Shown: one piece after another, positions 2,118-60,951 of the stretch
Layout: each line of letters starts with the position of its first letter
Position numbering within the stretch: position 1 is the stretch's first letter
Origin: Escherichia phage APCEc01
Strand: one strand, 5' to 3'
Length of the DNA: 64,000 nt
Sequence record: NC_029091.1
The notes under the pieces: model-generated
What the model was told of the DNA's origin: nothing
Seen by the model: the letters and a program-made list of their open reading frames with translations, nothing else
Database searches by the model: none
Program-made: the position numbers and the translations under genes

Positions 2118-2145
2118 GGAATCCTTCGGGATTCCTTTTTTTTTG
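2118..2145 (+). terminator. rho-independent terminator after soc
   Basis: Hairpin AGGAATCCTTCGGGATTCCT followed by a T-run. Confidence 0.7.
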
Positions 2146-2211
2146 TTTCTACAGTTTACAACCACTAAAAACTGTGTTAAGATATTCTTACTTACTCAAG
2201 AGGAGAACAAT

Positions 2212-2439
2212 ATGTTAAATCGTTGGATTAAACCTAATAACACATTAGGTGCTTTGATTGCTCAAGAAGTTTCGTTGAAATACGGTCTTGGATATTACGA
2301 TGATGTAGTCGTACACTCATTCATGATGGATGGTGAAGACGTCAAATTTAATGCCGAAATCCGCTGGGATGACGGTGGTGTTCGTTTTGTTCGAGGAACA
2401 ATTAATGCTTACGATACTGAAGAAGTTGTTTGCTGTTAA
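2212..2439 (+). CDS. hypothetical small protein
   Basis: 75 aa from ATG 2212 with RBS GAGGAG; track start 2143 is TTG. Confidence 0.5.
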   Translation: MLNRWIKPNNTLGALIAQEVSLKYGLGYYDDVVVHSFMMDGEDVKFNAEIRWDDGGVRFVRGTINAYDTEEVVCC

Positions 2440-3474: not shown

Positions 3475-3635
3475 AAGAGAAATTTAAAGAGAAATTCTTA
3501 CTAGAAATCAAGGAAAAAGACTTTGAGACATGGTATCGAATGGTGAAAGGGTTGACATTGCTTTTTAAAGCATCCTTATTCATGTTAAAACAACCTGGTC
3601 CTGATGGTCCTTTAGTAGGAAAGCTTAAAAAGTAG
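3471..3635 (+). CDS. hypothetical small protein
   Basis: 54 aa; ATGA overlap with upstream ORF; below the ORF-track length cut-off. Confidence 0.35.
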   Translation: MKEKFKEKFLLEIKEKDFETWYRMVKGLTLLFKASLFMLKQPGPDGPLVGKLKK

Positions 3636-3663
3636 TTTACATTCCCTCCTCTCGTGTTATGAT
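3635..3663 (+). promoter_or_regulatory. T4-type early promoter
   Basis: GTTTAC, 17-nt spacer, TATGAT; upstream of the modB-like gene. Confidence 0.55.
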
Positions 3664-3690
3664 AGGCTTATCTTTAAATGGAGGTCTATC

Positions 3691-4272
3691 ATGACATGTC
3701 AATCTGAACTTCAAGAACGTGAATACCTAACAAATCTGATTGATAGCAAATTCACCCGCCAAGAACAAAACATTCTCTGGGCTTGCACCGATTCTAAGGA
3801 AGACCCGGATTTCCACTATGAATTAGACCATCTTGTTCGTAAGCATATGACTTCTACAGCACCAGTAGAACTCTACCGTGGTGTAACTCCAGAAGAAGTA
3901 GAACGTCTTTCCCTTCTTTCTGTTGGATGCCATTGGTCTCCTGGACGAGTAACGTCGTTCACAACTGATTTCAGTACAGCTCGTCAATTCTCCGGGAGAT
4001 GGGAATATCAGACGTACACTATTCTTAGTCTCAGGAATGCTCCATTCATTTTTGATTACTACCAAAATATGGTTAACATTGTACTCGCCGGAAAGAACCC
4101 TAAGCATGTTATGGAAGAAACTCGTATCGATGTCCTAGATATGATTGAATCTGAACAAGAGTACATGGTCTCAGGCATCTCTCGATTTGAGATTGTGGAA
4201 ATTGAAGACTTAGAATATGACCCTTTATCTCGATTATACAAAATCATTCATTTGAAAATGTTGAATTTTTAG
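3691..4272 (+). CDS. modB: ADP-ribosyltransferase, ModA/ModB family
   Basis: 193 aa; R-S-E triad elements: LYRG, STS-like FTTDFSTA, E-Q-E (EQEYMVSG); position matches T4 modB. Confidence 0.6.
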   Translation: MTCQSELQEREYLTNLIDSKFTRQEQNILWACTDSKEDPDFHYELDHLVRKHMTSTAPVELYRGVTPEEVERLSLLSVGCHWSPGRVTSFTTDFSTARQFSGRWEYQTYTILSLRNAPFIFDYYQNMVNIVLAGKNPKHVMEETRIDVLDMIESEQEYMVSGISRFEIVEIEDLEYDPLSRLYKIIHLKMLNF

Positions 4273-4329
4273 TGTACAAACTCTTCCGATGATGATATTA
4301 TACCTTTATCAACCACAGGAGAAACCTAA

Positions 4330-4938
4330 ATGTTTATGCCGTATAACGAGTGTGAAATTGAAGAAATGGTTCGTCGTGCTCAAAACCCCGAATATCAAGA
4401 TGTATTGCAGTACGAAATTGATAGTCAATTCAACGATAATGAACAAAGCATCCTTTGGCAGTGTATGGAAAACAAGCCAGACTGTATTCAACAGGAGTTA
4501 AGTTCAATCGTTCGTAGAAATTGGACGTCTTCTGTTCCTGAGACAATGTATCGTGGAATCTCTAAGAAAACTATGGCCACACTTGATGATAAAGGCATTG
4601 GTAGTATTATTAAATTTGACAGAGTAATGAGCTTCAGCCCAGTGTTCGGTGTAGCACGTAACTTTGCTTCGTATAATTTTTACGGAACATTTAATATGTT
4701 CTGCATCAAAGATGCACCATTTGCTTTCAACTTCCGTGAACATATGCTTAACATGATTCTGGCTGCGCCATCTTGTGAGTTCAATGGAGCTTTCCCTGAA
4801 GCGACAAGACGGTCTAATGCTAGACTTATATCCGACGAATGTGAATTTATGCTCCCTATAGGGACTACACTGCGTGTAGATTCTATTATTCAAGATGGAC
4901 GTTATACAATCTGGAATCTGTCTATTGTCAGTTACTGA
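4330..4938 (+). CDS. modA: ADP-ribosyltransferase, ModA/ModB family
   Basis: 202 aa; MYRG, SFS, E-C-E-F motif; tandem to the preceding paralog. Confidence 0.6.
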   Translation: MFMPYNECEIEEMVRRAQNPEYQDVLQYEIDSQFNDNEQSILWQCMENKPDCIQQELSSIVRRNWTSSVPETMYRGISKKTMATLDDKGIGSIIKFDRVMSFSPVFGVARNFASYNFYGTFNMFCIKDAPFAFNFREHMLNMILAAPSCEFNGAFPEATRRSNARLISDECEFMLPIGTTLRVDSIIQDGRYTIWNLSIVSY

Positions 4939-5091
4939 CTGAATTGGAATAACCGGATGGAACTCAGAACCATTATAACACATAAAAAATTAAAGCATTT
5001 TACGAAAAAAGAGTGTACACTACCTGAGGGCATGATATTATAAGCTTATCAGCTAAATGACCTTAACGTCCGTAAGACAGAGGAAAATATT

Positions 5092-5838
5092 ATGTTATCA
5101 AATAATAAAATTAACAAAATCAATCGTCGTCTTGACCACACCAGAGCTTCTGCGAAGAGACGCTCTAAGGATTTTAACTTAGACTTTAATTACCTTAAAA
5201 ACATTCTTGATCAAAAGGTCTGCGCTTACTCAGGTGAATCTTTCAATAACTCTGTTGAAGGTGAGAAATTATCCTTAGAACGTTTTAATAACGATATCGG
5301 CTACATTAAAGGTAATGTTATCCCGGTTAAGAAAAAATATAACACGGCTCGTTCTGATTTAACATTAGAAGAACTTATTGAGAAACGTGACGCTGTTGCA
5401 AGACGTATCGCTAATCCTTCTGCCCGTAAAGTAGAGAAACTTAATCTCGACGAGAAGAAATGGGCCCAAATTAAAAAGGTTTATGATACTATTTTAAAAA
5501 TCCGAGCAAAACGTGAAAATCGTGTTAAGCATATGGCGAACATGATGAAAAATCAACCTTTATCTAACGAATCTAAACTTAGAATTGTTGCTTTGAAAGC
5601 ACGCATTAATGGCTCACATCAAGCAGAAGGCCATGAACTTACTAAACTCAACGTTCTTCTTAAAGGCTCTGACTGGAAAACTAAAACTAAATTAACTGAC
5701 GCTGAATCGCTTTTCGATACATATGATAAAGTTATCCAAGGTCTGCAACGTTTTGAAAAGATTGGTTTCATTGGTAAATTAAAATTGAAACGTGGCTTAC
5801 CACTTAGCGCATCATTATTCCAACTGATTAAAGGTTAA
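5092..5838 (+). CDS. Srd-like protein (assigned by position and size)
   Basis: 248 aa, basic; lies between modA and dda as T4 srd does; no sequence confirmation. Confidence 0.4.
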   Translation: MLSNNKINKINRRLDHTRASAKRRSKDFNLDFNYLKNILDQKVCAYSGESFNNSVEGEKLSLERFNNDIGYIKGNVIPVKKKYNTARSDLTLEELIEKRDAVARRIANPSARKVEKLNLDEKKWAQIKKVYDTILKIRAKRENRVKHMANMMKNQPLSNESKLRIVALKARINGSHQAEGHELTKLNVLLKGSDWKTKTKLTDAESLFDTYDKVIQGLQRFEKIGFIGKLKLKRGLPLSASLFQLIKG

Positions 5839-7471: not shown

Positions 7472-8149
7472 ATGAGCACTGATGTTATTATAGATTTTGA
7501 AACATTCGGCAATACATCAAAAGCGGCTGTTATTGACCTTGCGGTTATTGCATATAATTCCGACCCTGAAGTTGTTGAATCATTTGAAGAACTTGTTCAA
7601 CGAGGTAAGCGAATTAAATTTAATTTAGCTTCTCAGAAAGGGAAGCGAGTTTTCGCTAAATCCACTATGAAATGGTGGAAAGAACAATCGGCTGAAGCGC
7701 GTAAAAACTTGGCTCCGTCTGAAGACGATGTCACTACGCTTGAAGGCATTAAAATCTTTTTAGACTATTGCCGAGCTAATAAAGTTGACCAATGGAAATC
7801 ACAGATGTGGTGCCGTGGTATGAGCTTTGACTTCCCGATCTTGGTCGATTTGATTCGTGACCTCTATCGTGATGAAGGTGTTCTTGAACCAGAGATTGAT
7901 ACTGATAAATTAGAACCGGTTAAATTCTGGGCTCAACGTGATATTCGTACGGCAATCGAAGCTTACTCGTTGACACGAGGATTAAGTATGTGTCCATTAC
8001 CGATGGGTACGCTAAAAGGATTCGTTGCCCATGATAGTATTCATGATTGTGCTAAAGATATTTTGATGTTAAAATATGCTCAGCGTTATGCGCTTGGCCT
8101 TGAAGATGTCCCTGAGAATCCTGACCCGTTAAGTGTAAAACAGCGATAA
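7472..8149 (+). CDS. dexA: exonuclease A
   Basis: 225 aa; DEDD-type motif IIDFETFG; matches T4 DexA in size and position. Confidence 0.8.
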   Translation: MSTDVIIDFETFGNTSKAAVIDLAVIAYNSDPEVVESFEELVQRGKRIKFNLASQKGKRVFAKSTMKWWKEQSAEARKNLAPSEDDVTTLEGIKIFLDYCRANKVDQWKSQMWCRGMSFDFPILVDLIRDLYRDEGVLEPEIDTDKLEPVKFWAQRDIRTAIEAYSLTRGLSMCPLPMGTLKGFVAHDSIHDCAKDILMLKYAQRYALGLEDVPENPDPLSVKQR

Positions 8150-8154
8150 AACCA

Positions 8155-8184
8155 GTTTACAACCAAGGATGGTTGGAGTATAAT
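8155..8184 (+). promoter_or_regulatory. T4-type early promoter
   Basis: GTTTAC, 18-nt spacer, TATAAT. Confidence 0.6.
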
Positions 8185-8215
8185 CTTTCTATCTTAACCA
8201 AACAGGAAAAACATT

Positions 8216-8710
8216 ATGAATATCAATACTACGGCTACTTACATCCTGAAAGACGAAAAACAAATCAACTGGTACGGTGCTTCAGTGCGAGCTTATGAAA
8301 AGTTTTGTGAAATTTTAGGTGCCACTCAAGGTAATAGTTTCACTATTGTTAACTTCATCAAACAAGCTGAAGGCCCTTGGTTATTCTTAGAAATTAAAAA
8401 TTCACACGGTACAATTTCTACTACCGCCCTTCCAAGCACTGACTTTGAATTGTTGATTGAAGAAGTAGAACCCGTTAAAGACATCTGTATTGATATGGAT
8501 ATCGCTTGTATGTACGGTACTCTGATTAAGCCTATTGAGCCTACTGATTTGTTGTGTAAAGCTGTTTCAATTCGACGTCCGTTCGCAGGTCCAGTGAGTG
8601 GATGGGTAACTGATCAGTGGATTGAAGACGGTGTCGAACTTCTGAACGTTGTTCATGCAGGTGATTTTAGTGTAGTTCCACGTAGTGCTGTGGTTAATAT
8701 TCTAAATTAA
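8216..8710 (+). CDS. hypothetical protein, member A of a tandem paralog family
   Basis: 164 aa; C-terminal GWVTDQWIEDGVELLNVVHAGDFSVVP shared with the next two ORFs. Confidence 0.6.
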   Translation: MNINTTATYILKDEKQINWYGASVRAYEKFCEILGATQGNSFTIVNFIKQAEGPWLFLEIKNSHGTISTTALPSTDFELLIEEVEPVKDICIDMDIACMYGTLIKPIEPTDLLCKAVSIRRPFAGPVSGWVTDQWIEDGVELLNVVHAGDFSVVPRSAVVNILN

Positions 8711-8770
8711 TGTTGTACATCCAAGGATGGATGGAGTATAGTGAATTCAATTTAAACAAAGAGAGAAATT

Positions 8771-9235
8771 ATGATTACTATTGGTGAAATTAAGCGTGTA
8801 TCGACAGCGTCTCGTTCTAAAGCTGCAGGAAAGCTGGTTGAAGTAGTAGGACTTCGTACTAATGGCATGGGCCGTATTAAAGAAGTTAAAGTTCGAATCA
8901 TTCCTAGTTCTGGAAAAACTGAAACTCAGTTCGCCTATGTAAGTCCTAAATTCTTGGAAACTCGTGTAAGTGCCCACTTTGCTTCAAGCGATATCGTTGA
9001 GCCTACTACACAGTTCAAATGGGCCTTGTGTAAAGGTGTTGAATTCCAGACTGATAAAGAATTTGACTTCATCGATGAATACGGTTATCCAAGCAAAACT
9101 GATACTATGTGTGGCTTCATTAGCGACCAATGGGTTGAAGATGGTGAAAAGTTATACAATATCGTATTCTTAGGTGACTTCCGAGTTGTTAAAGAATCTG
9201 AAATCACTCGCTATGTGTCTCCTCGTAAAGCTTAA
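8771..9235 (+). CDS. hypothetical protein, member B of a tandem paralog family
   Basis: 154 aa; ASRSKAAGKLVEV, FKWALC and GFISDQWVEDGEKLYNIVFLGDF shared with member C. Confidence 0.6.
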   Translation: MITIGEIKRVSTASRSKAAGKLVEVVGLRTNGMGRIKEVKVRIIPSSGKTETQFAYVSPKFLETRVSAHFASSDIVEPTTQFKWALCKGVEFQTDKEFDFIDEYGYPSKTDTMCGFISDQWVEDGEKLYNIVFLGDFRVVKESEITRYVSPRKA

Positions 9236-9244: not shown

Positions 9245-9664
9245 ATGAATATTGTAAATCTCTCTACAGGTGATTACGTATATGTATCTGTTGCTTCTCG
9301 CTCTAAAGTTGCCGGGAAGTTGGTTGAAGTTCTTTCTGTGAGTGATCCGGTTTTTGGACGTAACGAAGTTAAAGTTCGAGATGTTAATGGTAACATTGGT
9401 TACGTCTCAAGTCAGTTTATTGAACCAGAAGAAAAAGCGTTCAAATGGAAACTGTGCAGGTCAGTTTTAGTTGTAAAAGACCATGAATTTACTATTGCTG
9501 CCGCAACTGATGGGTCTCCATGGACAACGAATCAAGTCGCTGGTTTTATTTCAGACCAATGGGTTGAAGATGGTGTTAAGCTTTATAACATCGTTTTCGC
9601 CGGACAGTTCATGGTAGTTCCTGAATTCCAAATCAAAGGATATAGCCAAGCATCTTTTGCATAA
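9245..9664 (+). CDS. hypothetical protein, member C of a tandem paralog family
   Basis: 139 aa; ASRSKVAGKLVEV, FKWKLC and GFISDQWVEDGVKLYNIVFAGQF. Confidence 0.6.
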   Translation: MNIVNLSTGDYVYVSVASRSKVAGKLVEVLSVSDPVFGRNEVKVRDVNGNIGYVSSQFIEPEEKAFKWKLCRSVLVVKDHEFTIAAATDGSPWTTNQVAGFISDQWVEDGVKLYNIVFAGQFMVVPEFQIKGYSQASFA

Positions 9665-9723
9665 AGTAGTTTACTTCTCCTCCGGTTTTGATATTATAAC
9701 CATATCAACCAGAGGAGAATAAT

Positions 9724-10248
9724 ATGTTAGTTTACCGCGTAGAACGTAGTTTTTGTACTCAACGTGAATCATTACCAGGAATTGCTATCGAAGACGGTAA
9801 AGCCGTCAGAATTTGGGAAACCTCTTGGAATAAAGAACCTCGCTCGCCATACGGTTGGTCGGGCACCGACAACTCTGAAGAAACATGGGAGTTCCTTAAT
9901 AAGCATGGAATACTCTCAGGTAACTTCTACCATCACGGCGACAACTATAATGTCCCTAATCGTCCTACAGTAAATGAAGACAAACTCCTTGAACAAAATA
10001 TCTTAAGATACTATAGAATTGAGCACACATTTGAATTGAACGAAGATTGGGCTCAAGGGTTCTATTTTGGATTTGAAAGTGTTGACGCGGTTTATGCATG
10101 GTTTGATGACCAGGTGGATGTTGAACTCTTGAAAGCTAAAGGATACTACATCGCGGTCTATGAAGCACCTGATTTCATCCTCGGAAGTTGTCAATTAATG
10201 TTTAGACGTTCATTGGCAGAACAAGTTGATTTTATTTTGCTAAAATGA
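9724..10248 (+). CDS. hypothetical protein
   Basis: 174 aa; own early promoter and RBS GAGGAG. Confidence 0.55.
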   Translation: MLVYRVERSFCTQRESLPGIAIEDGKAVRIWETSWNKEPRSPYGWSGTDNSEETWEFLNKHGILSGNFYHHGDNYNVPNRPTVNEDKLLEQNILRYYRIEHTFELNEDWAQGFYFGFESVDAVYAWFDDQVDVELLKAKGYYIAVYEAPDFILGSCQLMFRRSLAEQVDFILLK

Positions 10249-10305
10249 TGTACAACAACTATGGTCTATGATACTATAGACCTATCAAAACAAGAGGAGA
10301 ATATT

Positions 10306-10533
10306 ATGAAACGTCAAATCATTAAAAACGTAACTACTGATTCAAACATCGATGAGTTTGAAGATGTTCTGTTTAATCCTGATTTAGTTGTTGTACAGAA
10401 AAACTGGACCGAATTTTTATGCTACACTGAAGTGGTTTACGTTTACGAAAAACTCGGTGATGAAATGCCTATCTATGGTATCTTCCGTGAAATCACTGAA
10501 AACGGTACAACTTATTGGAAGGAAACTTACTAA
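10306..10533 (+). CDS. hypothetical small protein
   Basis: 75 aa from ATG 10306 with RBS GAGGAG; the track ATG at 10261 lies inside the promoter. Confidence 0.5.
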
Positions 10534-18053: not shown

Positions 18054-18058
18054 TAATT

Positions 18059-18082
18059 GGGGACTTCGGTCCCCTTTTTTTC
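18059..18082 (+). terminator. rho-independent terminator after rIIB
   Basis: GGGGACTTCGGTCCCC plus T-run. Confidence 0.75.
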
Positions 18083-18095
18083 TTTAGGGGTAAAC

Positions 18096-18383: not shown

Positions 18384-18876
18384 GTTTTTGACTAGCGAAA
18401 TGAAAGTGAAGATTGCTGACACCGCTCGGTATTCCCTGAGCCAAAATCCAGACCAAAACAAAGAAGATGTAGTTCGACGTTGTAAGGTTGCAGTCTTTGC
18501 AGAGTATGTAGTAGCAAATTGGCTAGACGGATATGTTAATAAAGGTATTGAAGATGTAGAAGACCCGTACACGTATGCATGGGACGTGTTAGCCCATCCC
18601 AAATATTGTGGAATTCGTGTAGAAGTCAAGACACATCAGATGGATTCTAAATGGATTTCTGTTACCACAGGATACAGTGGTGATTATCCGGGTGGTAATG
18701 GAATCAATATAGGGCCCTTCTTGAATCATCGAGTCGCAGATTGTATTATTATATTAGATGTCAAAGAAACCTCACCTGACGTCTTCTCTTATTCTATAAA
18801 GTTCGTGGGAGACCATGAAGACCTAAAGAAAATCGTCCGCAAGAGCAACTACAACGGGTGGTATCTTCATCTTTAA
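18319..18876 (+). CDS. PD-(D/E)xK-like nuclease, candidate endonuclease IV (denB)
   Basis: 185 aa from ATG 18319 with SD AGAGGT (alternative ATG 18400 gives 158 aa); WDVL...GIRVEVK resembles a PD-(D/E)xK core; position after rIIB as T4 denB. Confidence 0.4.
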   Translation: MVKTNLGLLRLKSLPTFILSNEFLTSEMKVKIADTARYSLSQNPDQNKEDVVRRCKVAVFAEYVVANWLDGYVNKGIEDVEDPYTYAWDVLAHPKYCGIRVEVKTHQMDSKWISVTTGYSGDYPGGNGINIGPFLNHRVADCIIILDVKETSPDVFSYSIKFVGDHEDLKKIVRKSNYNGWYLHL

Positions 18877-18888
18877 TTTCATAAAAGT

Positions 18889-18918
18889 GTTTACAACTAA
18901 GTAGGACTATGATATAGT
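18889..18918 (+). promoter_or_regulatory. T4-type early promoter with inverted repeat over the -10
   Basis: GTTTAC ... TATAGT; inverted repeat TAGGACTA / TAGTCCTA flanks the -10. Confidence 0.6.
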
Positions 18919-18944
18919 AGTCCTATCTAAAAGAGGATAACATC

Positions 18945-19208
18945 ATGAAATTTAAATTTTTCTACGCAAAACATAAAGTAACAGGCGAATTTGTTTCAAT
19001 GTACAACACTGCAGATGACGAAGGGATGATTTATACCCATTTGGGACTATCTCATTGGGACTCGGACATGCCTTATATGTCATCTGAAGCCGAAATAACT
19101 CGTTTAGTTAACGGACATATGAACGACCATTTTGGTGTTATTCTTTCTAAAGACCTTAAAGAGGTTATCAACAAAGGATATATGGAACTAGCGGAAGTTG
19201 AGATATGA
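18945..19208 (+). CDS. hypothetical protein
   Basis: 87 aa; RBS AAGAGGA. Confidence 0.55.
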   Translation: MKFKFFYAKHKVTGEFVSMYNTADDEGMIYTHLGLSHWDSDMPYMSSEAEITRLVNGHMNDHFGVILSKDLKEVINKGYMELAEVEI

Positions 19209-19291
19209 GCTCTAAAATGTGGATCGGAATATGGTTGCTTAGTATCCCAATGATTTGTATAATATTTTCAATTGTGTTGAGGTACTTATGA
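19205..19291 (+). CDS. small hydrophobic peptide
   Basis: 28 aa MSSKMWIGIWLLSIPMICIIFSIVLRYL; ATGA coupling to the upstream ORF. Confidence 0.3.
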   Translation: MSSKMWIGIWLLSIPMICIIFSIVLRYL

Positions 19292-19398
19292 AAATTGCAC
19301 TTCTTATTGTACTAAGAACAATTTGTGATACGGGTTTTTACATTGCATGTTCGTTCACTGGAACATGGTTGGCTTTAACATATTTTAATGTAATTTAA
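19288..19398 (+). CDS. small hydrophobic peptide
   Basis: 36 aa MKIALLIVLRTICDTGFYIACSFTGTWLALTYFNVI; ATGA coupling. Confidence 0.3.
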   Translation: MKIALLIVLRTICDTGFYIACSFTGTWLALTYFNVI

Positions 19399-19400
19399 TT

Positions 19401-19430
19401 GTTTACAACAAGGTAGGATTATGGTATAGT
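19401..19430 (+). promoter_or_regulatory. T4-type early promoter with inverted repeat over the -10
   Basis: GTTTAC ... TATAGT; inverted repeat GTAGGATTA / TAGTCCTAC. Confidence 0.6.
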
Positions 19431-19458
19431 AGTCCTACTGAAACATGAGGAACACAAA

Positions 19459-19659
19459 ATGGCTAAGCTTTTTAAAGATGTTGAAATTGATGAAAAATTT
19501 GTTCTGAATAATGGTCAGCAGCTTATTCGTGTAGCTTCTATCGCCGGACAAACTCATAACTGTATCGCCCCAACGTGTTGGACTCGATTCTTTATTGAAG
19601 ATGACACTGAATGTTTAACTGTTGAAGAGCTTTTTGAACGTTCTGATATGGCCGAATAA
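19459..19659 (+). CDS. hypothetical protein
   Basis: 66 aa; RBS GAGGAA. Confidence 0.5.
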   Translation: MAKLFKDVEIDEKFVLNNGQQLIRVASIAGQTHNCIAPTCWTRFFIEDDTECLTVEELFERSDMAE

Positions 19660-19661
19660 AA

Positions 19662-19691
19662 TTGTACAAACTCTTGAGAGCAGAGTATAAT
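19662..19691 (+). promoter_or_regulatory. T4-type early promoter with inverted repeat over the -10 (ndd)
   Basis: TTGTAC ... TATAAT; inverted repeat GAGAGCA / TGCTCTC; near-identical cassette recurs at 47823. Confidence 0.6.
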
Positions 19692-19735
19692 GCTCTCATG
19701 GATTACAAAAACATTAATCAATTGAGGAAATTAGC

Positions 19736-20182
19736 ATGTCCAAATATTTAACTCGTAAAGACCTTCTGGCAGTTGGCGGTGAAGTTGTTGCAGTAGTTCG
19801 TAATGGCGAATACGGTTCCGAAGTTTCTAAAGAGTTTCGTTCTCGTGAAGGTTTTTACTTCTTTGTTAAAGGTTCATCTGATTGGCGACAAGTAGCAGCA
19901 CGATTCTTTGTAGGACGTCAACGTTCTAAACAAGGGTTGGATGCAATTCTTTCTCACATTCGTCAAGGCCGTTCGCAACTAGCCCGTACCATGGGCACTA
20001 ACAATATTGAATATGATGTAATCTTTGTTGCAGCTAAGAACATGAAACCACTGACCACTGGTTATGGTAAAGGTCAATTGGCTCTGGCATTCACTCGCAA
20101 CCATACATCAGAATATCAAACACTCACTGAAATGAACCGTCTTCTGGCTGATAATTTCAAATTCATTCTGCAGAGTTACTAA
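19736..20182 (+). CDS. ndd: nucleoid disruption protein Ndd
   Basis: 148 aa; QRSKQG..LSHIRQ.RSQLART and [36 protein letters not shown] match T4 Ndd. Confidence 0.85.
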
Positions 20183-20234
20183 TTTATACAGGCCTATTAA
20201 GTTAGGCCTTTAATTTATTTTTGAGGTAATTAAA

Positions 20235-20521: not shown

Positions 20522-20525
20522 AAAT

Positions 20526-21947: not shown

Positions 21948-21971
21948 GTGCATTTTTTTTCTCACAAAACA

Positions 21972-22000
21972 GTTTACTTTTGCTTCAAACATGATAGTAT
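21972..22000 (+). promoter_or_regulatory. T4-type early promoter (cassette copy 1)
   Basis: AGTTTACTTTTGCTTCAAACATGATAGTATAAACCTATCAAAACAAA; nearly identical to the copy at 22293. Confidence 0.55.
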
Positions 22001-22039
22001 AAACCTATCAAAACAAAACAACCAAATTGGAGAAATAAA

Positions 22040-22255
22040 ATGTCTAAAATGAAATTAACTCAAAACACAACTACTCGTTTCGGTAAAGTTAAACCTGGTA
22101 TGAATGCTCCCCGTAAAGCACTTGTTGAAGAATTAAATTTCTTAGAAGTTGAAATCAATTCTTTAGTGGTTCGCGGTTCAAATGGACATCATTTAGAAAA
22201 GCTTCGTTCTAAAAAGGCAAAACTTATTGGCCTTATTAAAGAAATGAGTTTGTAA
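22040..22255 (+). CDS. hypothetical basic small protein
   Basis: 71 aa; begins MSK like MotA and shares its upstream cassette. Confidence 0.5.
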   Translation: MSKMKLTQNTTTRFGKVKPGMNAPRKALVEELNFLEVEINSLVVRGSNGHHLEKLRSKKAKLIGLIKEMSL

Positions 22256-22292
22256 ATTTTACCAGGGCTTTTGAAAAAGAGCCCAAAATAAA

Positions 22293-22321
22293 GTTTACTT
22301 TTGCTTCAAACATGTTATTAT
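22293..22321 (+). promoter_or_regulatory. T4-type early promoter (cassette copy 2, motA)
   Basis: AGTTTACTTTTGCTTCAAACATGTTATTATAGACCTATCAAAACAAA. Confidence 0.55.
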
Positions 22322-22358
22322 AGACCTATCAAAACAAATACTAATTTGGAGAAATAAA

Positions 22359-22991
22359 ATGTCTAAAGTTACTTACATCATCAAAGCTTCTGAAAACGCT
22401 CTGAATGAAAAAACTGCTGCAATAATGGTTTATATCATTAAGAACAACTTCACCACTGCTGCCAATGTCCGTGAAGCTCTGGAAGCAGAATACAATGCAT
22501 CGGTTGTTAACTCTAACATTGGCGTATTGATTAAGAAAGGTTTAGTCGAAAAATCTGGTGATGGACTTATAGCAACAGGCGAAGCAATGGATATTATCCA
22601 AAAAGCTGCAGACCTCTTTGCCCAAGAAAATGCTCCAGAACTTCTTCAGAAACGTAACACTAGAAAAGCACGTGGAGTTACTCCTGAAATGCATGAATTA
22701 GCAAACTTTGTTTTTGAAAATATTAAAGATAAAGTTGAAGTTAAAGAAATTGGCGAAAACCGTAGTAACTTGGAAGTTCGATTTGCAAAACGAGTTCTAG
22801 GTATTCGTCAGATCGAAATTCGTCGAAATGGTTCTCTTAGAATCTTTGCATACAACATGTCAGAAACTGAATCAAAGCTGTTTACTTCTCTTGAAAATGA
22901 TGTTAAGATTAAGATCGGTGGTAAATATACTTACATTGACTTCCCTAATGTGTCCAAAGAAATCATTACCCTTGTAACTAACGTACTGTGA
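22359..22991 (+). CDS. motA: middle-transcription activator MotA
   Basis: 210 aa; MSKVTYIIKAS and VVNSNIGVLIKKGLVEKSGDGLI match T4 MotA. Confidence 0.9.
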   Translation: MSKVTYIIKASENALNEKTAAIMVYIIKNNFTTAANVREALEAEYNASVVNSNIGVLIKKGLVEKSGDGLIATGEAMDIIQKAADLFAQENAPELLQKRNTRKARGVTPEMHELANFVFENIKDKVEVKEIGENRSNLEVRFAKRVLGIRQIEIRRNGSLRIFAYNMSETESKLFTSLENDVKIKIGGKYTYIDFPNVSKEIITLVTNVL

Positions 22992-24655: not shown

Positions 24656-24806
24656 TCTTCAGAACGTAGTAGAGGCCGAACGTGAGCGTGAGGCTTTAGT
24701 CTATAATGAACTATTAGTTCAATTCTTGGTCTTACACTCGTACGAACAGGAAGACTATACCAATTACGTTAAAAGCGTAGAAAAAGCCGTTTACAATCAA
24801 CACTGA
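24645..24806 (+). CDS. hypothetical small protein
   Basis: 53 aa; RBS AAGGA. Confidence 0.35.
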   Translation: MSHNLQNVVEAEREREALVYNELLVQFLVLHSYEQEDYTNYVKSVEKAVYNQH

Positions 24807-24818
24807 TAATGGTACTAT
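24789..24818 (+). promoter_or_regulatory. T4-type early promoter for asiA
   Basis: GTTTAC, 18-nt spacer, TACTAT. Confidence 0.5.
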
Positions 24819-24852
24819 ACTCCTATCAATTAAGTGGAATGAATAAAACGTT

Positions 24853-25125
24853 ATGAATAAAGACATTGAAATCGTACGTGAAATTATTACTATTGCTTCT
24901 ATTTTGATTAAATTCTCTAGGGAAGATATTGTTGAAGACCGAGCAAGTTTCATCGGATTCTTGAATGAGATTGGAATTAAAAAAGATGGTCGGCAGCTAA
25001 ATCAGAATTCGTTCAGAAAACTAATTACAAATTTAACTGCCGAAGAAAAGAAAACACTGATTAGTGAATTCAATGAAGGTTTTGAAAATATTTATCGTCA
25101 TTTAGCGATGTATTCTAACAACTAA
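24853..25125 (+). CDS. asiA: anti-sigma-70 factor AsiA
   Basis: 90 aa; REIITIASILIKFSREDIVE and NEGFENIYRHL match T4 AsiA almost throughout. Confidence 0.95.
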   Translation: MNKDIEIVREIITIASILIKFSREDIVEDRASFIGFLNEIGIKKDGRQLNQNSFRKLITNLTAEEKKTLISEFNEGFENIYRHLAMYSNN

Positions 25126-35175: not shown

Positions 35176-35205
35176 TCGTTTTTCCTTTATTGTTTCAATA
35201 ATACT

Positions 35206-35213
35206 TATTTATA
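35206..35213 (-). promoter_or_regulatory. late promoter (TATAAATA) for gene 34
   Basis: TATAAATA on the minus strand about 30 nt upstream of the gp34 ATG. Confidence 0.65.
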
Positions 35214-35278
35214 CCAGTTTACGCTTTCAAATGAGTGTGTTACTATAGACAAGTTGACTAACTGAACAAGAGGTTCAT

Positions 35279-36196
35279 ATGGATTTAGAAATGATGTTGG
35301 ATGAAGATTACAAAGAAGGTATTGCACTTGCCGACTTTAGTAACATTGCATTGGCAGCCGCATTAAACAACTTTGAAGACGGCGATAAAATTACTGTTCC
35401 GATGGTTCGCCATGTAATCTTGAATTCAATTCGTAAAAACGTAGTGATGTTCCGTAAGCAAGGCTATACAAAATTTGTATTGTGTATGGATAATGCTACT
35501 TCAGGTTATTGGCGTCGTGACTTTGCTTACTATTACAAGAAAAATCGTAAAACCGATCGTGAAGCTTCAAAGTGGGATTGGGAAGGATATTTTACTGCAC
35601 TCCATCAAGTTGTTGATGAGATTAAGAAATACATGCCATACGTTGTAATGGATATTGACAAGTATGAAGCGGATGACCATATCGGTGTATTAACTAAATA
35701 TTTGTCATTAGCCGGTCATAAGGTATGTATTGTTGCATCAGATGGTGACTTTACACAATTACACAAATATCCTAACGTTAAACAGTGGTCGCCACCACAG
35801 AAAAAATGGGTTAAAATTAAGAACGGTTCTGCTGAAATTGATTGCATGACTAAAATCCTTAAAGGTGACCGTAAGGATGGTGTTGCATCTGTTCGAGTTC
35901 GTGGTGACTTCTGGTTTACTCGAGTTGAAGGTGAACGAACTCCGAGCATGAAAACAACGATTATTGAAGCAATTGCCAATGACCGTTCTCAAGCTGAAGT
36001 ATTATTAAGTGCAGAAGAATATAAACGGTATCAAGAAAATTTGGTTCTCATTGATTTTGATTATATCCCTGATAATATTGCTTCAACCATTATAGAGTAT
36101 TATAACTCATATAAACCACAACCTAAAGGCAAGATTTATTCATACTTTGTAAAATCTGGTCTTTCTAAATTAACAAGTGTAATTAATGAATTCTGA
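35279..36196 (+). CDS. rnh: RNase H (5'-3' exonuclease / flap endonuclease)
   Basis: 305 aa, same as T4 Rnh; position next to dsbA and 34. Confidence 0.85.
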   Translation: MDLEMMLDEDYKEGIALADFSNIALAAALNNFEDGDKITVPMVRHVILNSIRKNVVMFRKQGYTKFVLCMDNATSGYWRRDFAYYYKKNRKTDREASKWDWEGYFTALHQVVDEIKKYMPYVVMDIDKYEADDHIGVLTKYLSLAGHKVCIVASDGDFTQLHKYPNVKQWSPPQKKWVKIKNGSAEIDCMTKILKGDRKDGVASVRVRGDFWFTRVEGERTPSMKTTIIEAIANDRSQAEVLLSAEEYKRYQENLVLIDFDYIPDNIASTIIEYYNSYKPQPKGKIYSYFVKSGLSKLTSVINEF

Positions 36197-38488: not shown

Positions 38489-38515
38489 GAGTATCTGTAA
38501 ATTGCCGAAAAAGTT

Positions 38516-38546
38516 GTTTACTTCTTCCCTGGATGTGTTAGTATAG
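38516..38546 (+). promoter_or_regulatory. T4-type early promoter
   Basis: GTTTAC ... TAGTAT/TATAGA followed by CCTATCAACAACATGAGGAAA. Confidence 0.55.
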
Positions 38547-38573
38547 ACCTATCAACAACATGAGGAAATCAAA

Positions 38574-38966
38574 ATGGAAATCGGAAAATCTTATATCATT
38601 AACCCTTTATTTAAAGATGACTTTGTTCAAGAAGCACCACACAATAATGCTAAGATGTTAAAATTGATTGAACTCCACGGGCCTAGTTTTGTTGTAAACG
38701 GAATGGAACCTGATTATGATAGCGATACGTCAAACGTAGTAAGTGTAACTATGGAAGATGGTACTGTATGTTCTGCCGGTGGTGAAATTGAAACTTATTT
38801 TGAGATTTATCCTGACGAGTTCAAATACTTTACTGAGGTAGATATAGTAAAGCCTCAACCTACTAACGAAGGTATAGCTTTAGGTGTAACAAAAATCCAT
38901 TGTATCGTAGATGAAACCAACGTCGACGAAATCATCGAACTTTTGCAAAAAACTTTTAAAAAGTAG
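38574..38966 (+). CDS. hypothetical protein (frd.3 position)
   Basis: 130 aa. Confidence 0.5.
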   Translation: MEIGKSYIINPLFKDDFVQEAPHNNAKMLKLIELHGPSFVVNGMEPDYDSDTSNVVSVTMEDGTVCSAGGEIETYFEIYPDEFKYFTEVDIVKPQPTNEGIALGVTKIHCIVDETNVDEIIELLQKTFKK

Positions 38967-39028
38967 TGTACAATCAGATAGGGTTATGTTATAGTAGCCC
39001 TATCAAATCAAAAGTGAAGGAGAATAAA

Positions 39029-39277
39029 ATGAGATTGCAACGTCAGAGCATCAAAGATTCTGAAGTTAGAGGTAAATGGTACTTCAACATCGTTGGTAAA
39101 GATGCTGAACTCCTTGAACAAGCTGAAGAAGCTTTACGCGAAATGGGTTGGAACGAAGAATGTGATGGATGTCCACTCTACGAAGATGGTGAAAGTGCAG
39201 GATTCTGGATTTGCCACTCTGATGTTGAAATGTTCAAAGCCGATTGGAAAGTTGTTAAGAAAAATCTGAGGAAATAA
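39029..39277 (+). CDS. hypothetical protein (frd.2 position)
   Basis: 82 aa from ATG 39029 with RBS GAAGGAG (track start 38966 is GTG inside the promoter). Confidence 0.5.
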   Translation: MRLQRQSIKDSEVRGKWYFNIVGKDAELLEQAEEALREMGWNEECDGCPLYEDGESAGFWICHSDVEMFKADWKVVKKNLRK

Positions 39278-44823: not shown

Positions 44824-45234
44824 ATGAAAGATATCGCCGCCGAATATTCCTTTATTAAATATACAGAATTGGAGCTATTAGAAGATGCAACAATTAAAAC
44901 AGTTGATGTCCCTAATAAGAAAAATGTCATATATGCTATTGCTATAGATGACGAACTTGTGTATATTGGTAAAACCAAGAATTTAAAGAAACGCATTAAC
45001 TATTATCGAACAGCCATAAATCGAAAAGACCAGACTTCAGATTCAAGAAAATCACTTATGATTTTGGATGCCTTAATGCAAGGCAAAAAGGTTGAATTCT
45101 GGGCCCGCCAATGTTTTGACCTTTCAGTCACCAACGAACTTGGTTCAATGACCATCGCAACAATGGACCTTGAAGAACCGCTTTTTATCAAAAAGTTCAA
45201 CCCGCCTTGGAATATCCAACATAAGAAAAAGTAG
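44824..45234 (+). CDS. denA: endonuclease II (GIY-YIG family)
   Basis: 136 aa as T4 DenA; GIY-YIG-like VYIGKTKNLKKRINYY. Confidence 0.8.
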   Translation: MKDIAAEYSFIKYTELELLEDATIKTVDVPNKKNVIYAIAIDDELVYIGKTKNLKKRINYYRTAINRKDQTSDSRKSLMILDALMQGKKVEFWARQCFDLSVTNELGSMTIATMDLEEPLFIKKFNPPWNIQHKKK

Positions 45235-45281
45235 TTTACACACCACAAGGATTGTGGTACAATTTAAAAAAAACTAACTGA

Positions 45282-46415
<1,134 letters not shown>

Positions 46416-46476
46416 CGGTTTACAAACACCAAGGATGGTGATACTATGGGTTTATCAACAACACGAGGAGAAAATT

Positions 46477-46977
46477 ATGAATATGCAATTGATTACTAAC
46501 GATATGGTCGTAAACGCTTTTGGAGACACAACTGACGGAATCCGGGTCTTTAAGAAAGGACGTCCAGTTGGTTATCTTACTGACCTACGTGTTACACTGG
46601 CCAAAAATCTTAAAAAGAAAGTAAAACAAAAAGAGTATTCAACCCGATACGCTGAAGAGAAACGCGAAGCGATGCCGGAAGCAGTTAATGCCATGGTAGA
46701 ATTTCTTCAAAACAATTTGACTAAATATGATGCTAATGTGTTCATTAATATTAGTCAACCAAACGTACATATCGCAGGTATAAAATTCTACATTATTTGC
46801 GACCCTCTTACCGACAAATTCAACCGCCTCGGAATTTCAAGTCCATATCATACAGCAGAAGAGTTGTGTGTATTGTTTGAATCATACAAAATCCAGTGTG
46901 ATGGTTTGAAAACCGTTCTTATCAATGGATTATCCCGAGATGAAATCATTGAGATTATTAAAACATGCTTAAAGTAA
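46477..46977 (+). CDS. Alc-like protein (assigned by position and size)
   Basis: 166 aa from ATG 46477 with RBS GAGGAG; T4 Alc is 167 aa and lies between 63 and pseT.3. Confidence 0.4.
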   Translation: MNMQLITNDMVVNAFGDTTDGIRVFKKGRPVGYLTDLRVTLAKNLKKKVKQKEYSTRYAEEKREAMPEAVNAMVEFLQNNLTKYDANVFINISQPNVHIAGIKFYIICDPLTDKFNRLGISSPYHTAEELCVLFESYKIQCDGLKTVLINGLSRDEIIEIIKTCLK

Positions 46978-47608: not shown

Positions 47609-47823
47609 CTAAAGAACAGCATGAATACATTAAAGGGCTTATCTATGAATCTGAAATGGCGGCTATGATTTATGGACGCCAGATTCAACGATTAGAATCT
47701 TTGCCTCCGACTAATGACCGCTTGTTAGTTCAGTCTCGTGCTAATCTGAAAAATGAATATCAGAATAAGTGGGCAGTAGCGACTAAAGCTCTTCATGAGT
47801 ATATTGAATCTTTAGTAAAATAG
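47599..47823 (+). CDS. hypothetical protein
   Basis: 74 aa; RBS AGAGGAAA. Confidence 0.45.
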   Translation: MPMTKEQHEYIKGLIYESEMAAMIYGRQIQRLESLPPTNDRLLVQSRANLKNEYQNKWAVATKALHEYIESLVK

Positions 47824-47852
47824 TTTACAAACTCTCGGGAGCAGAGTATAAT
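47823..47852 (+). promoter_or_regulatory. T4-type early promoter with inverted repeat over the -10
   Basis: GTTTAC ... TATAAT; inverted repeat GGGAGCA / TGCTCC; close copy of the ndd promoter cassette. Confidence 0.6.
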
Positions 47853-47880
47853 GCTCCTATGGATAATTGAGGAAATCTAA

Positions 47881-48179
47881 ATGAAAACATTACTAGAGAA
47901 TTACATCAAACGGTCTGATGAGTATATTGATATCTGCCGTGGAATGACACTTGTAGATTATGACAAAGATGCAGCAAAGGCACTAGATGAAGCAGGTAAA
48001 GCTCTTCGTAAAGCTGCTAAAGAAAAAGGGTTGGATTTGCAACAACTCAAAAGTCATATGATTAAATTTATTTCTTCAAACGTTAGAAGTACGTCAATTA
48101 ATAAAAACGTTGCTGAAATTAATAAAGACCGGCGCGAACTCAACATTCGTATTCTTGAAGCTTTCTTAGGAATCAAATA

Positions 48180-49670: not shown

Positions 49671-49946
49671 ATGTTCCCAACTTATTCTGAAATTGTAAAG
49701 GTAGTCTTCAGTCAGATTATTGCTAATAATATGTTTGAAGTGCTTGATAATGCAGCCGAACTCAGAGTTCATGCTCAACTAACTCATGTACTCAATGCTT
49801 TGCTCCCAGACCAAGTAGATTCTATTGCTATTACTCTTCTCCCTGGGTCTGCACACGTCATAGTGGTATTTGATCTTGACGGCGATTTAGTTATCCAATG
49901 TGATATCAATTTCGGTACACAAAAAATTGAATGCAAAGCAATTTAA
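49671..49946 (+). CDS. hypothetical protein
   Basis: 91 aa. Confidence 0.45.
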   Translation: MFPTYSEIVKVVFSQIIANNMFEVLDNAAELRVHAQLTHVLNALLPDQVDSIAITLLPGSAHVIVVFDLDGDLVIQCDINFGTQKIECKAI

Positions 49947-50006
49947 TGGTTTACAACATGGTGGAGTTGTGATACTATAACTCTACCAACAAATGAGGAA
50001 ATAGAA

Positions 50007-50243
50007 ATGCTAAGTGAAAACCCAATTACAGTACACGAATTTCAGATTAAAGTAAAAGAATTTGCTCAAGCACTCATCAATAAAGTGTCTGAACGTTTCC
50101 AAGATGCAACATTACGAGTTATTCAAGAATCTCCACGTTCTTTTCTCATAATCGTTAATCCTAAAGATGGTGACCAAATTACTAATCTTAAATTAGGCAG
50201 TGATGGTCTTGTTGAAGCAACTCGAGTATATGGAACACTATAA
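50007..50243 (+). CDS. hypothetical protein
   Basis: 78 aa; own early promoter. Confidence 0.5.
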   Translation: MLSENPITVHEFQIKVKEFAQALINKVSERFQDATLRVIQESPRSFLIIVNPKDGDQITNLKLGSDGLVEATRVYGTL

Positions 50244-53499: not shown

Positions 53500-53602
53500 G
53501 TGCGTTTAGGGCGGAAAAAGTTTAAAAAGATGTTTACTCTCCTGTAGGATGTGTTACTATAGACTTGTACCACCTAATCAATAAAACAACCTGGAGAACA
53601 AA

Positions 53603-53971
53603 ATGAAAATCAATCTGAACTCATACATCAAATGTAAAGACCATGATGGTTATAAAGCTATCGAAATTAAAGAATTCCAGTGGATGTTATACAAAGAGCA
53701 ATTTGAGTTCGTAGGTTGTATGACCCCTGAAGGTCCTTCTGATGATTTCTCTTGGAAAATTGTGTTAGCAAACTTTTTCACAGGTGACACATACGAATTA
53801 AAAACTATTATTACCGGTAAAATTCGTTCAGAAACATATGTTGACGAAGAAACTGGTTACTCTGAAGATGTTACATGGTATCAAAATGGACGCATTACCG
53901 CAGATAACCTGATCGAAAAAATGAAAGCCAAAGGTGTTTTAAATTTAGACAATTGGATTAAAGTTGCATAA
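53603..53971 (+). CDS. hypothetical protein
   Basis: 122 aa. Confidence 0.5.
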   Translation: MKINLNSYIKCKDHDGYKAIEIKEFQWMLYKEQFEFVGCMTPEGPSDDFSWKIVLANFFTGDTYELKTIITGKIRSETYVDEETGYSEDVTWYQNGRITADNLIEKMKAKGVLNLDNWIKVA

Positions 53972-54045
53972 AACAGTTTACTTTGGTACAGGTTATGTTA
54001 TTATAGACCTGTACCAACAAACAACTTAAACATCTGGAGAATAAA

Positions 54046-54411
54046 ATGAACTACACCAACTTCGAACGTAAATATGTTTCTAACGGTATTGCTGGTTCTT
54101 CTGAAGTTATTTGCTTATGGAAACACGAAAACGGTACAGTTTGTGAAATCGAACAGTGCATGACTCCTAATTACGTTTATATGCGATTTGAAAATGGTAT
54201 CACGGTTTCAATCACGATGGAAGGTTCAAATTTTAAAATTGCATTAGATGATGATTTCCGTCAGCGTGATTTAGGTACTCATCCTTGCTGGAATGGTGTT
54301 AATCGTAAACTTCTGGTTAAAACTTGGATTCGTCATATCCTGAGTAACCGAGCTAAACCTGAACATCTTGAAGCAATCTTTGATGTAGTTCTTAACGAAT
54401 TTGATATCTAA
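54046..54411 (+). CDS. hypothetical protein
   Basis: 121 aa. Confidence 0.5.
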   Translation: MNYTNFERKYVSNGIAGSSEVICLWKHENGTVCEIEQCMTPNYVYMRFENGITVSITMEGSNFKIALDDDFRQRDLGTHPCWNGVNRKLLVKTWIRHILSNRAKPEHLEAIFDVVLNEFDI

Positions 54412-55061: not shown

Positions 55062-55115
55062 TGTACATCCAAGGACGGATTAGAGTATAATGATTTCTTT
55101 AGTAAGTGGAAAAAT

Positions 55116-55313
55116 ATGAAATTTTTAATAGCACAAACAGTCCAATTAAAAGGTGTTGGAATCCCTGGGATGATTTTTAAAGTTCTCAACGAATTTAAAA
55201 CTGCCGCTGGAATTATCAATGAAGCGTATGCTGTTCAATGGGTTGATGGGACTTCTGACATACGTATGGGTAAAGAGTTATCTCCTATTAAAGGGTTGAA
55301 ACATGTTGAATAA
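55116..55313 (+). CDS. hypothetical protein
   Basis: 65 aa. Confidence 0.45.
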   Translation: MKFLIAQTVQLKGVGIPGMIFKVLNEFKTAAGIINEAYAVQWVDGTSDIRMGKELSPIKGLKHVE

Positions 55314-60893: not shown

Positions 60894-60951
60894 TTTACAA
60901 ACACATGGATGTGTGATACTATCATCCCATCAACAACATGAGGAAAACGTT

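Follow-up and report, generated by a model that had tools for sequence, protein, structure and literature searches.

Promoter-early stem-loops (PeSLs) were defined in the phages RB49 and phi1, where pairs of these cassettes gave rise to deletions and mini-circles and one RB49 stem-loop reduced lacZ expression to the same extent as rrnB T1 (Arbiol et al., 2010; PMC2839356). Later, PeSLs were extended to T4/PST and nt-1/KVP40 and suggested for all T4-like phages (Comeau et al., 2014; PMC4122927). For RB69, 58 early promoters have been predicted (Nolan et al., 2006; PMC1524935). In the passages of that paper that were searched, the sites are handled as promoters only: neither 'palindrome' nor 'hairpin' occurs there, and embedded hairpins, covariation and recombination are not mentioned. 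Here, a stretch of 64,000 nt from Escherichia phage APCEc01 (NC_029091.1), in the following called the window, was analysed for a family of early-promoter/5' untranslated region (5'UTR) cassettes, many of which carry an inverted repeat. These modules are probably sigma-70-dependent early promoters and expression cassettes whose hairpins are selected as part of read-through RNA and whose homology to each other feeds recombination. The promoters have been known as RB69 predictions since 2006, and promoter/stem-loop recombination cassettes were described in 2010 and 2014 in other T4-type phages. The present finding extends the known PeSL element to the RB69 group. The proposed RNA-level role of the hairpins and a subclass predicted to pair with the Shine-Dalgarno (SD) sequence go modestly beyond the literature consulted.

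Megablast with positions 17000-23000 and with two 25-kb stretches of the window found over 150 phage genomes, exclusively Mosigvirus, with identities of 95-99%. The window is colinear with coordinates 1-64000 of vB_EcoM_SCS57. Mosigvirus comprises RB69-like T4-type coliphages, and the source phage of the window falls in this group. Early genes are carried by the + strand, tail-fibre genes (25-35 kb) and the genes past 61 kb by the - strand. A look-up of Ndd in IMG/VR returned just three near-identical loci, and GenBank phage records were used instead. Promoter features are absent from the RefSeq records of T4 and RB69, and no genome-wide 5'/3'-end map of T4 was found in the literature that was searched. 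An alignment with the RB69 promoters covered five cassettes: three are nearly identical to their counterparts, and those of motA and asiA match theirs (Table 1; Nolan et al., 2006). For the other cassettes, the RB69 list has entries at positions fitting by gene order.

A two-block position weight matrix (PWM, threshold 10 bits) applied to the whole window found 25 distinct cassettes on the + strand and none on the - strand, whereas 20 block-shuffled windows yielded 0-2 matches for both strands together. Scores range from 16 to 44 bits, and all 25 sites follow the pattern T(T/G)TAC-N16-18-TAnnnT. The strict form GTTTAC-N15-19-TATART has four matches, compared to 0.11 expected. A generic sigma-70 consensus scan did not discriminate (56 sites, 63 expected), so that the family-specific PWM was required. 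The modules have a length of 60-80 bases and are designated here by the position of their -35 box (Table 1). Anchored on the -10 box, their consensus reads AAAA..GTTTACA, a spacer of 16-18 nt, TG(A/T)TA(C/T)TAT, AGACCTATCAAC, GAGGA and ATG, with an extended -10 of the form TGnTAnnAT and CCTATCAAC at the start site. An AAAAA tract lies ahead of GTTTAC, and the upstream open reading frames (ORFs) stop 0-15 nt before the -35 box (e.g. at 3635, 8149, 18876, 19659 and 47823). Each of the 25 cassettes has an SD (GAGGA/GGAG) 5-10 nt ahead of the ATG. The module is present at all 23 positions listed in an earlier, sequence-only reading of this DNA, and a loose regular expression added two sites, 2155 and 35218. 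That reading had described the copies as near-identical, which is refuted by a mean pairwise identity of just 46% over 65 nt (maximum 77% for the pair 21973/22294; random windows 26%). The -10 box it had given, TATAAT/TATAGT, is present in only nine of the 25; most have TAYTAT or TAGTAT. Cassettes are clustered at 2-10, 19-25, 38-39, 45-50 and 53-55 kb, and none is found in late and long-operon stretches. The suggestion that their density marks accessory islands was half right: the cassettes are simply early promoters, and most of them precede conserved T4-like early genes (modA/B, srd, motB, ndd, motA, asiA, rnh, rnlA, alc).

With a T-even-type promoter, the cassettes fit the layout of the RB49-type PeSL. 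As in RB49/phi1 (PMC2839356), an upstream stop codon in an AT-rich tract is followed by -35, -10, stem-loop, SD and ATG. The stem-loop is mostly located between -35 and -10 or overlaps the -10, with G-T pairs allowed. The elements are intergenic, form clusters in early regions, and bound gene-sized indels between close relatives in pairs. Differences concern the promoter (GTTTAC/TAYTAT of the T4/RB69 type in the window, TTGACA/TATAAT in RB49/phi1), the stems (AT-rich and varied versus polyG/polyC) and the downstream genes (mostly conserved early genes versus ORFans). PeSLs are described as favouring hyperplastic regions beside ORFans (Arbiol et al., 2010; Comeau et al., 2014). Furthermore, promoter, terminator and mini-circle activities were measured in RB49/phi1, whereas the window cassettes are known from sequence alone. 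With the T4/PST PeSLs (PMC4122927), they share the T-even consensus TTTACW-N17-TAYWAT and the association with indels, e.g. in the ndd.4/.5 region. However, the T4/PST stem-loops were placed just upstream of the promoter, whereas the helices enriched in the window and in the T4 loci scanned here are internal to the promoter or extend to the SD. With the RB69 promoters of Nolan et al. (2006), the window cassettes share the UP-like A-tract, GTTTAC, TGn, the -10 and the C-rich positions -3 to -1. The -35/spacer/-10/A-tract/SD-ATG layout, the RB69 matches and the positions of the stem-loops thus bear out the earlier proposal of early-promoter/5'UTR cassettes with a PeSL-type stem-loop.

Perfect stems of at least 6 bp occur at 12 of the 25 sites. 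When the alignment columns were permuted 1000 times among sites, which retains the promoter consensus, the mean was 3.65 and the maximum 9. Between positions -24 and +26, the best perfect stem averages 5.72 bp, compared to 4.57 +/- 0.19 bp after column permutation, and ten read-through forms folded with ViennaRNA gave z-scores from -0.6 to -5.6. A hairpin is recognisable in about 16 of the 25 cassettes, and three layouts can be distinguished. In class S (8156, 8714, 45235, 46419, 55062, 60894), both arms are inside the spacer and the loop is (A/U)GGA. In class T (10249, 18890, 19402, 19663, 38967, 47824, 49950, 53977), the arms flank the -10 and the 3' arm extends to about +1. Class L, strong in 9670, clear in 3636 and weak in 53533, pairs a spacer/-10 segment with the gene's own SD/AUG. 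The inverted repeats quoted in the sequence-only reading are exact (GAGAGCA at 19676-19682, TGCTCTC at 19691-19697), except that the end of the repeat beginning at 18902 had been set one position short of 18925. That such repeats flank the -10 applies to only about 9-10 sites; six are wholly in the spacer, and one to three reach the SD region.

To follow these hairpins into relatives, T4 (three loci) and the two Dhakavirus phages JS10 and VR5 were scanned with the same PWM, and cassettes were grouped by the downstream protein. T4 has the same kind of site ahead of orthologous genes, and nine of 19 T4 early promoters contain stems of at least 6 bp, for instance GACAAGACTA/TAGTCTTGTC before dmd. 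At orthologous sites the hairpin is usually kept, often in a different sequence. The cd.2 stem is GGTAGAG/CTCTACC in T4, GGTAGGAC/GTCCTACC in JS10 and GGTGGAG/CTCTACC with a G.U pair in the window. Before alt.-3, ACACA/TGTGT of the window corresponds to CCACA-agga-TGTGG in JS10/VR5; the frd.1 sites have three different stems, and the 30.7 helix GGTACAGG/CCTGTACC is conserved. A lack of conservation of the repeats in relatives would have refuted the sequence-only reading; hairpins are present in T4, JS10 and VR5, often with compensatory changes. At some loci even the class differs: the cassette downstream of denB is class T in the window and class S in T4, JS10 and VR5, and that of alc is class S in the window and class L in the other three, which implies replacement of whole cassettes. 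Covariation was assessed in an alignment without gaps, which comprised 67 distinct cassettes (window, T4, JS10 and VR5). A helix in fixed register, -13..-4 with +5..+14 relative to the -10, is paired at 53.1% (49.5 +/- 1.1% in shuffles, 29-41% with 3' partners slid) and shows 70 double-sided changes (40.9 +/- 6 in shuffles) and a covariation score of 0.236 (0.189 +/- 0.013 in shuffles). Each of these three values was reached by none of 500 shuffles; as the sequences are related to one another, the figures are supportive and not exact probabilities. As a side observation, the short contig 'phage Ec2-ASingh' (PQ561409.1) matches nothing but the ndd cassette, over 44 nt (19660-19703) at 93%.

Two asymmetries point to the RNA of the sense strand. 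In 45 hairpins that have no more than two isolated mismatches in their interior, 13 of these are G.T/T.G and only one is A.C. The expected share of G.T in G.T plus A.C is 0.41 in composition-matched shuffles (p = 7e-5, or 9e-4 without paralog/ortholog duplicates). Moreover, the mean minimum free energy of the sense strand is lower than that of the antisense strand (-12.1 versus -10.2 kcal/mol; Wilcoxon p = 0.0017). Both asymmetries would be lacking if the repeats acted as symmetric DNA or as palindromes bound by a protein, so that sense-strand RNA is favoured. The predicted start site is located 7 nt past the -10, corresponding to the last base of the 51-nt promoter windows of Nolan et al. (2006), and coincides with the end of the 3' arm or shortly precedes it. 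Because the 5' arm is in the spacer and the 3' arm ends at about this predicted start, the full hairpin is impossible in RNA from the cassette's own promoter. In T4, read-through between early units arranged in tandem is well established. A convincing hairpin is missing from the two cassettes at which read-through is not expected: 2155 is located behind the strong terminator 2116-2137, and 35218 in the divergent gap between gene 34 and rnh.

These data suggest the following mechanism. Each promoter is fused to the 5'UTR, SD and start codon of the next gene, and the cassette would thus be a self-contained expression unit. In about two thirds of the cassettes, the only sequence-free part of the promoter, the spacer between -35 and -10, accommodates the 5' arm of a hairpin. 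The complete hairpin would form solely in read-through RNA initiated at an early promoter further upstream, and selection on this sense-strand RNA would keep it. Class S and T hairpins may be intercistronic insulators that attenuate read-through, act as a barrier or provide the upstream message with a stable 3' end. In a few cassettes, namely 9670 and, to a lesser degree, 3636 and 53533, the hairpin would hide the SD in read-through RNA, and the gene would consequently be translated mainly from the transcript of its own promoter.

Three other explanations of the repeats have to be weighed. They might act in DNA, either as cruciforms or single-strand hairpins that draw nicking or recombination, e.g. 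by endonuclease VII, or as palindromic operators of a dimeric repressor that turns early promoters off. Two indels with cassette-internal junctions (see below), an RB49 crossover that was mapped to a hairpin loop (Arbiol et al., 2010; PMC2839356) and the incompletely understood mechanism of early-promoter shut-off would agree with this. However, the 13:1 ratio of G.T to A.C and the better folding of the sense strand are unexpected for a symmetric DNA structure or a bound palindrome, and on this asymmetry the DNA palindrome/operator was rejected. The stems also vary from site to site and covary, which excludes a single sequence-specific protein, and the junctions of both indels are outside stem and loop, either in the SD-ATG stretch or next to the hairpin in a sequence that is shared (GGAGTATA). 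A role in DNA is therefore very unlikely. Classical Rho-independent termination, which would close each upstream unit as proposed for the RB49 PeSLs, is only slightly less so. The hairpins are indeed intergenic and directly follow the upstream stop codon, and it was a stem-loop of this kind in RB49 that lowered lacZ expression (PMC2839356). Nevertheless, no U-tract follows any cassette hairpin, the 3' arm being typically succeeded by TCAACAAC or TCTAAAAG, which makes classical termination improbable. In addition, the stems are short and AT-rich (-5 to -18 kcal/mol), class S hairpins run directly into the -10 box, and the canonical UUCG-loop terminators with T-runs that the window holds elsewhere are different in kind.

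Finally, the repeats could be functionless by-products of an AT-rich promoter consensus or hitch-hikers copied during cassette duplication. Part of the signal is at the level of the consensus (TGATA-N9-TATCA around the -10), and hairpins are common to paralogous cassettes such as 19663/47824 and T4 alc/alt.-3. Yet column permutation retains the consensus while the stems vanish, covariation exceeds both the shuffled and the slid controls, compensatory changes separate genera at orthologous sites, and the wobble bias is strong. Lack of function is thus the least credible of the three, with hardly any probability left to it.

The SD-pairing subset is best exemplified by 9670. Here, a nested helix is predicted to be enclosed by a duplex of UCUCCUC and GAGGAGA (-18.3 kcal/mol, z -5.6), and the spacer/SD pairing alone (-17.9 kcal/mol) ranks first among 68 cassettes. 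The value for the unpaired SD is 0.21 in the read-through form compared to 0.88 in the primary transcript. The T4 motB.2 ortholog has the same SD pairing with a different inner helix (-23.5 kcal/mol). Similar anti-SD pairing was found before T4 alc, alt.-3, ndd.4 and 30.8 and before ndd.4 and alc of JS10/VR5, one case in T4/JS10/VR5 being a 12-bp perfect match, CATCTCCATTAG/CTAATGGAGATG. A cognate spacer/SD duplex of -14 kcal/mol or lower is present in nine of 68 cassettes and in 1.7% of non-cognate pairs (permutation p = 0.0002). The cut-off for SD masking was passed by 13 cassettes, by 7.2 (maximum 13) chimeras and by 10.2 shuffles. A related arrangement is known from T4 e, soc, 49 and I-TevI, where a late promoter is located inside an SD-masking hairpin (reviewed in PMC3014915). 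Likewise, the SD pairs upstream of an internal promoter at 9670 and T4 motB.2, alc, alt.-3, ndd.4 and 30.8, and only the proximal transcript is predicted to have a free SD. In contrast to those genes, the internal promoter of the cassette is early (sigma-70) and not late, a minority of cassettes is concerned, and the switch, which is a predicted one, would separate early read-through RNA from early RNA of the own promoter and not early from late RNA.

Class S hairpins share a loop of (A/U)GGA closed by CA/UG and have different outer stems. Of the 14 + strand hairpins with GGA in the loop, six fall in the spacers of cassettes, which represent about 2% of the sequence. The SELEX (systematic evolution of ligands by exponential enrichment) consensus of CsrA is RUACARGGAUGU with the GGA in a hairpin loop. 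The class S core CAAGGAUG resembles the core of this consensus, a similarity that is a lead only. No Rfam family reached the gathering score anywhere in the window. Another word, TTTGCTTCA, which is MotA-box-like, was noticed in the spacers of both motA-type promoters (21979-21987 and 22300-22308). As the MotA box of a canonical middle promoter it was rejected, since it is about 6 nt too close to the -10.

The role of cassettes in recombination was assessed by comparing the window with the loci of ten relatives and counting indels of at least 100 bp. Two of ten distinct indels have both junctions in cassettes (8156/8714 and 21973/22294). As cassettes cover less than 3% of the sequence, two double matches in ten are a strong enrichment. 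AV115 is devoid of window positions 8156-8711 (556 bp), which comprise a motB-family paralog, and has a single cassette, to which 8156 contributes the 5' part and 8714 the 3' part, with the fusion inside GGAGTATA. Since the ORF of this paralog is present in 152 records, the AV115 deletion is the minority form. Five of the compared relatives lack 321 bp (22049-22369-type) with cassette 22294 and the 71-aa ORF 22040-22255. The junction is within GGAGAAATAAAATGTCTAAA, common to both cassette copies, and for this reason the 71-aa ORF opens with the first three codons of motA (ATG TCT AAA). RB69 has a 186-nt gap with a single cassette between gene 52 and motA, and the 71-aa ORF is absent. The 321-bp segment is found in 77 records, compared to roughly 170 Mosigvirus-level matches. 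The 71-aa ORF itself is JS98 gp253-like. The earlier proposal that such cassettes are recombination substrates is thereby supported with two gene-sized indels between close relatives, which are clean examples of gene loss or gain from cassette to cassette. The 20-80 nt of similarity between neighbouring cassettes would be enough homology for phage recombination to delete or insert the intervening gene. Tandem paralogs, modB/modA (3691-4938) and two motB-family genes (8216-9235), were also observed. Each copy has its own cassette, so that cassettes appear to duplicate along with genes.

Several points weigh against the combined picture of read-through hairpins and recombining cassettes. About eight of the 25 cassettes are without a hairpin beyond the consensus TGATA-N9-TATCA. 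Paralogous and orthologous copies, whose independence is incomplete, are pooled in the counts of covariation and of G.U pairs, and the lack of a U-tract behind the stems counts here as well. Start sites and read-through, including the existence and amount of the read-through RNA and the effect of the hairpins on it, are inferred from T4 biology. Averaged over the family, SD accessibility does not differ between read-through forms (0.558) and chimeric controls (0.566). SD masking as a property of the whole family was consequently rejected and is claimed for a minority of cassettes only. Eight of the ten indels are not cassette-bounded. Five are insertions in relatives: those near 13425 and 36789 carry annotated homing endonucleases, that near 11600 is a 660-bp insertion with an ORF for a hypothetical protein, and those near 40650 and 44290 correspond to introns of td and nrdB, which contain I-TevI-like and I-TevIII-like genes. 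The remaining three have no cassette at the junction and affect soc.1/soc.2, a DAHP-synthase gene and, in one case, a change of 101 bp. The DAHP-synthase-like gene is missing in Shigella phage JK36, with a 13-nt overlap at the junction; in the window it is an aroF-type auxiliary gene of 330 aa between cd.2 and cd (50364-51356). Moreover, one of the two cassette-bounded indels removes one of the tandem motB-family paralogs, and ordinary unequal crossing-over could therefore explain the 8156/8714 event. Cassettes are one recombination route among several.

Table 1. Cassettes (all on the + strand), their hairpins or pairings, and canonical terminators in the window
Feature	Position	-35	-10	ATG	Hairpin or pairing	Remarks
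mrh.2-like gene cassette	2141..2214	2155	2178	2212	no convincing hairpin	PWM 25 bits; just past terminator 2116-2137
modB-like gene cassette	3622..3693	3636	3658	3691	-10/discriminator 3659-3669 with SD/AUG 3682-3692; z -2.57	T4 modB has same layout
modA cassette	4259..4332	4273	4296	4330	just consensus-level TGATA/TATCA repeat	
srd cassette	5000..5094	5014	5036	5092	just TGATA/TATCA repeat	
motB-family paralog cassette	8142..8218	8156	8179	8216	class S CAACCA-agga-TGGTTG, 8161-8176	upstream junction of 556-bp indel
motB cassette	8700..8773	8714	8737	8771	class S CATCCA-agga-TGGATG, 8719-8734	downstream junction of 556-bp indel
motB.2-like gene cassette	9656..9726	9670	9692	9724	class L; TCTCCTC 9676-9682 (spacer) with GAGGAGA 9712-9718 (SD)	nested TGATAT/ATATCA helix
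cef cassette	10235..10308	10249	10272	10306	class T GGTCTAT/ATAGACC, 10263-10282	
RB69ORF270c-like gene cassette	18876..18947	18890	18913	18945	class T TAGGACTA 18902-18909 / TAGTCCTA 18918-18925; z -2.35	3' arm ends at predicted start site; RB69 Pe:165795
ndd.1 cassette	19388..19461	19402	19425	19459	class T GTAGGATTA/TAGTCCTAC, 19413-19438; one G.U pair; z -3.21	RB69 Pe:165283
ndd cassette	19649..19738	19663 (TGTACA)	19686	19736	class T TGAGAGCA/TGCTCTCA, 19675-19698; z -2.34	RB69 Pe:165022
71-aa ORF cassette	21959..22042	21973	21995	22040		first of 77%-identical pair; upstream junction of 321-bp indel
motA cassette	22280..22361	22294	22316	22359		second of pair; downstream junction of 321-bp indel; RB69 Pe:162713
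asiA cassette	24776..24855	24790	24813	24853	weak TGATA/TATCA repeat only	RB69 Pe:160217
rnh cassette	35204..35281	35218	35241	35279	no hairpin	divergent gap with gene 34
frd.2 cassette	38503..38576	38517	38539	38574	just weak anti-SD-like TCTTC segment	
frd.1 cassette	38953..39031	38967	38990	39029	class T GATAGGGTTA/TAGCCCTATC, 38977-39004; one U.G pair; z -4.43	
rnlA cassette	45221..45293	45235	45258	45291	class S ACCACAA-gga-TTGTGGT, 45242-45258	
alc cassette	46405..46479	46419	46442	46477	class S CACCA-agga-TGGTG, 46427-46440	
99-aa ORF cassette	47810..47883	47824	47847	47881	class T GGAGCA/TGCTCC, 47838-47857	loop GAGTATAA as in 19663 and T4 motB
cd.2 cassette	49936..50009	49950	49973	50007	class T TGGTGGAGTTGT/ATAACTCTACCA, 49959-49988; 10 Watson-Crick + 2 G.U pairs; z -4.93	
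30.8 cassette	53519..53605	53533	53555	53603	weak anti-SD pairing CUCC with GGAG	
30.7 cassette	53963..54048	53977	53999	54046	class T TTGGTACAGGT/ACCTGTACCAA, 53983-54017; 11 bp; z -3.52	also in T4 and VR5
30.5 cassette	55048..55118	55062 (TGTACA)	55086	55116	weak class S ATCC-aaggac-GGAT, 55066-55079	
alt.-3 cassette	60880..60954	60894	60917	60952	class S ACACA-tgga-TGTGT, 60901-60914	
Terminator	2116-2137				UUCG tetraloop	T-run
Terminator	11552-11567				UUCG tetraloop	T-run; scores on both strands
Terminator	13433-13450				UUCG tetraloop	T-run
Terminator	18059-18074				UUCG tetraloop	T-run; scores on both strands

Beyond insulation, the hairpins might be a general device by which T-even-type phages mark the origin of a transcript, being present in read-through RNA and absent from RNA of the own promoter. 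This is a speculative extension to which we attach a rather low probability. The three layouts would then be three ways of treating read-through RNA differently: the anti-SD form would block translation directly, the GGA-loop form would recruit an RNA-binding factor, and the form around the -10 would set a stable 3' end or a barrier. If this were true, the cassettes would be linked to the control of immediate-early and delayed-early expression and of RNA stability in T4.

The wobble bias, the strand asymmetry and the covariation over three genera provide evidence, drawn from sequences only, for selection of the stems in sense RNA. This shifts the function of the hairpins from DNA and recombination to read-through transcripts. 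Should the proposed RNA role prove true, it would offer a handle on the insulation of tandem early units in T4-type phages and would bear on the immediate-early/delayed-early problem (PMC2988021).

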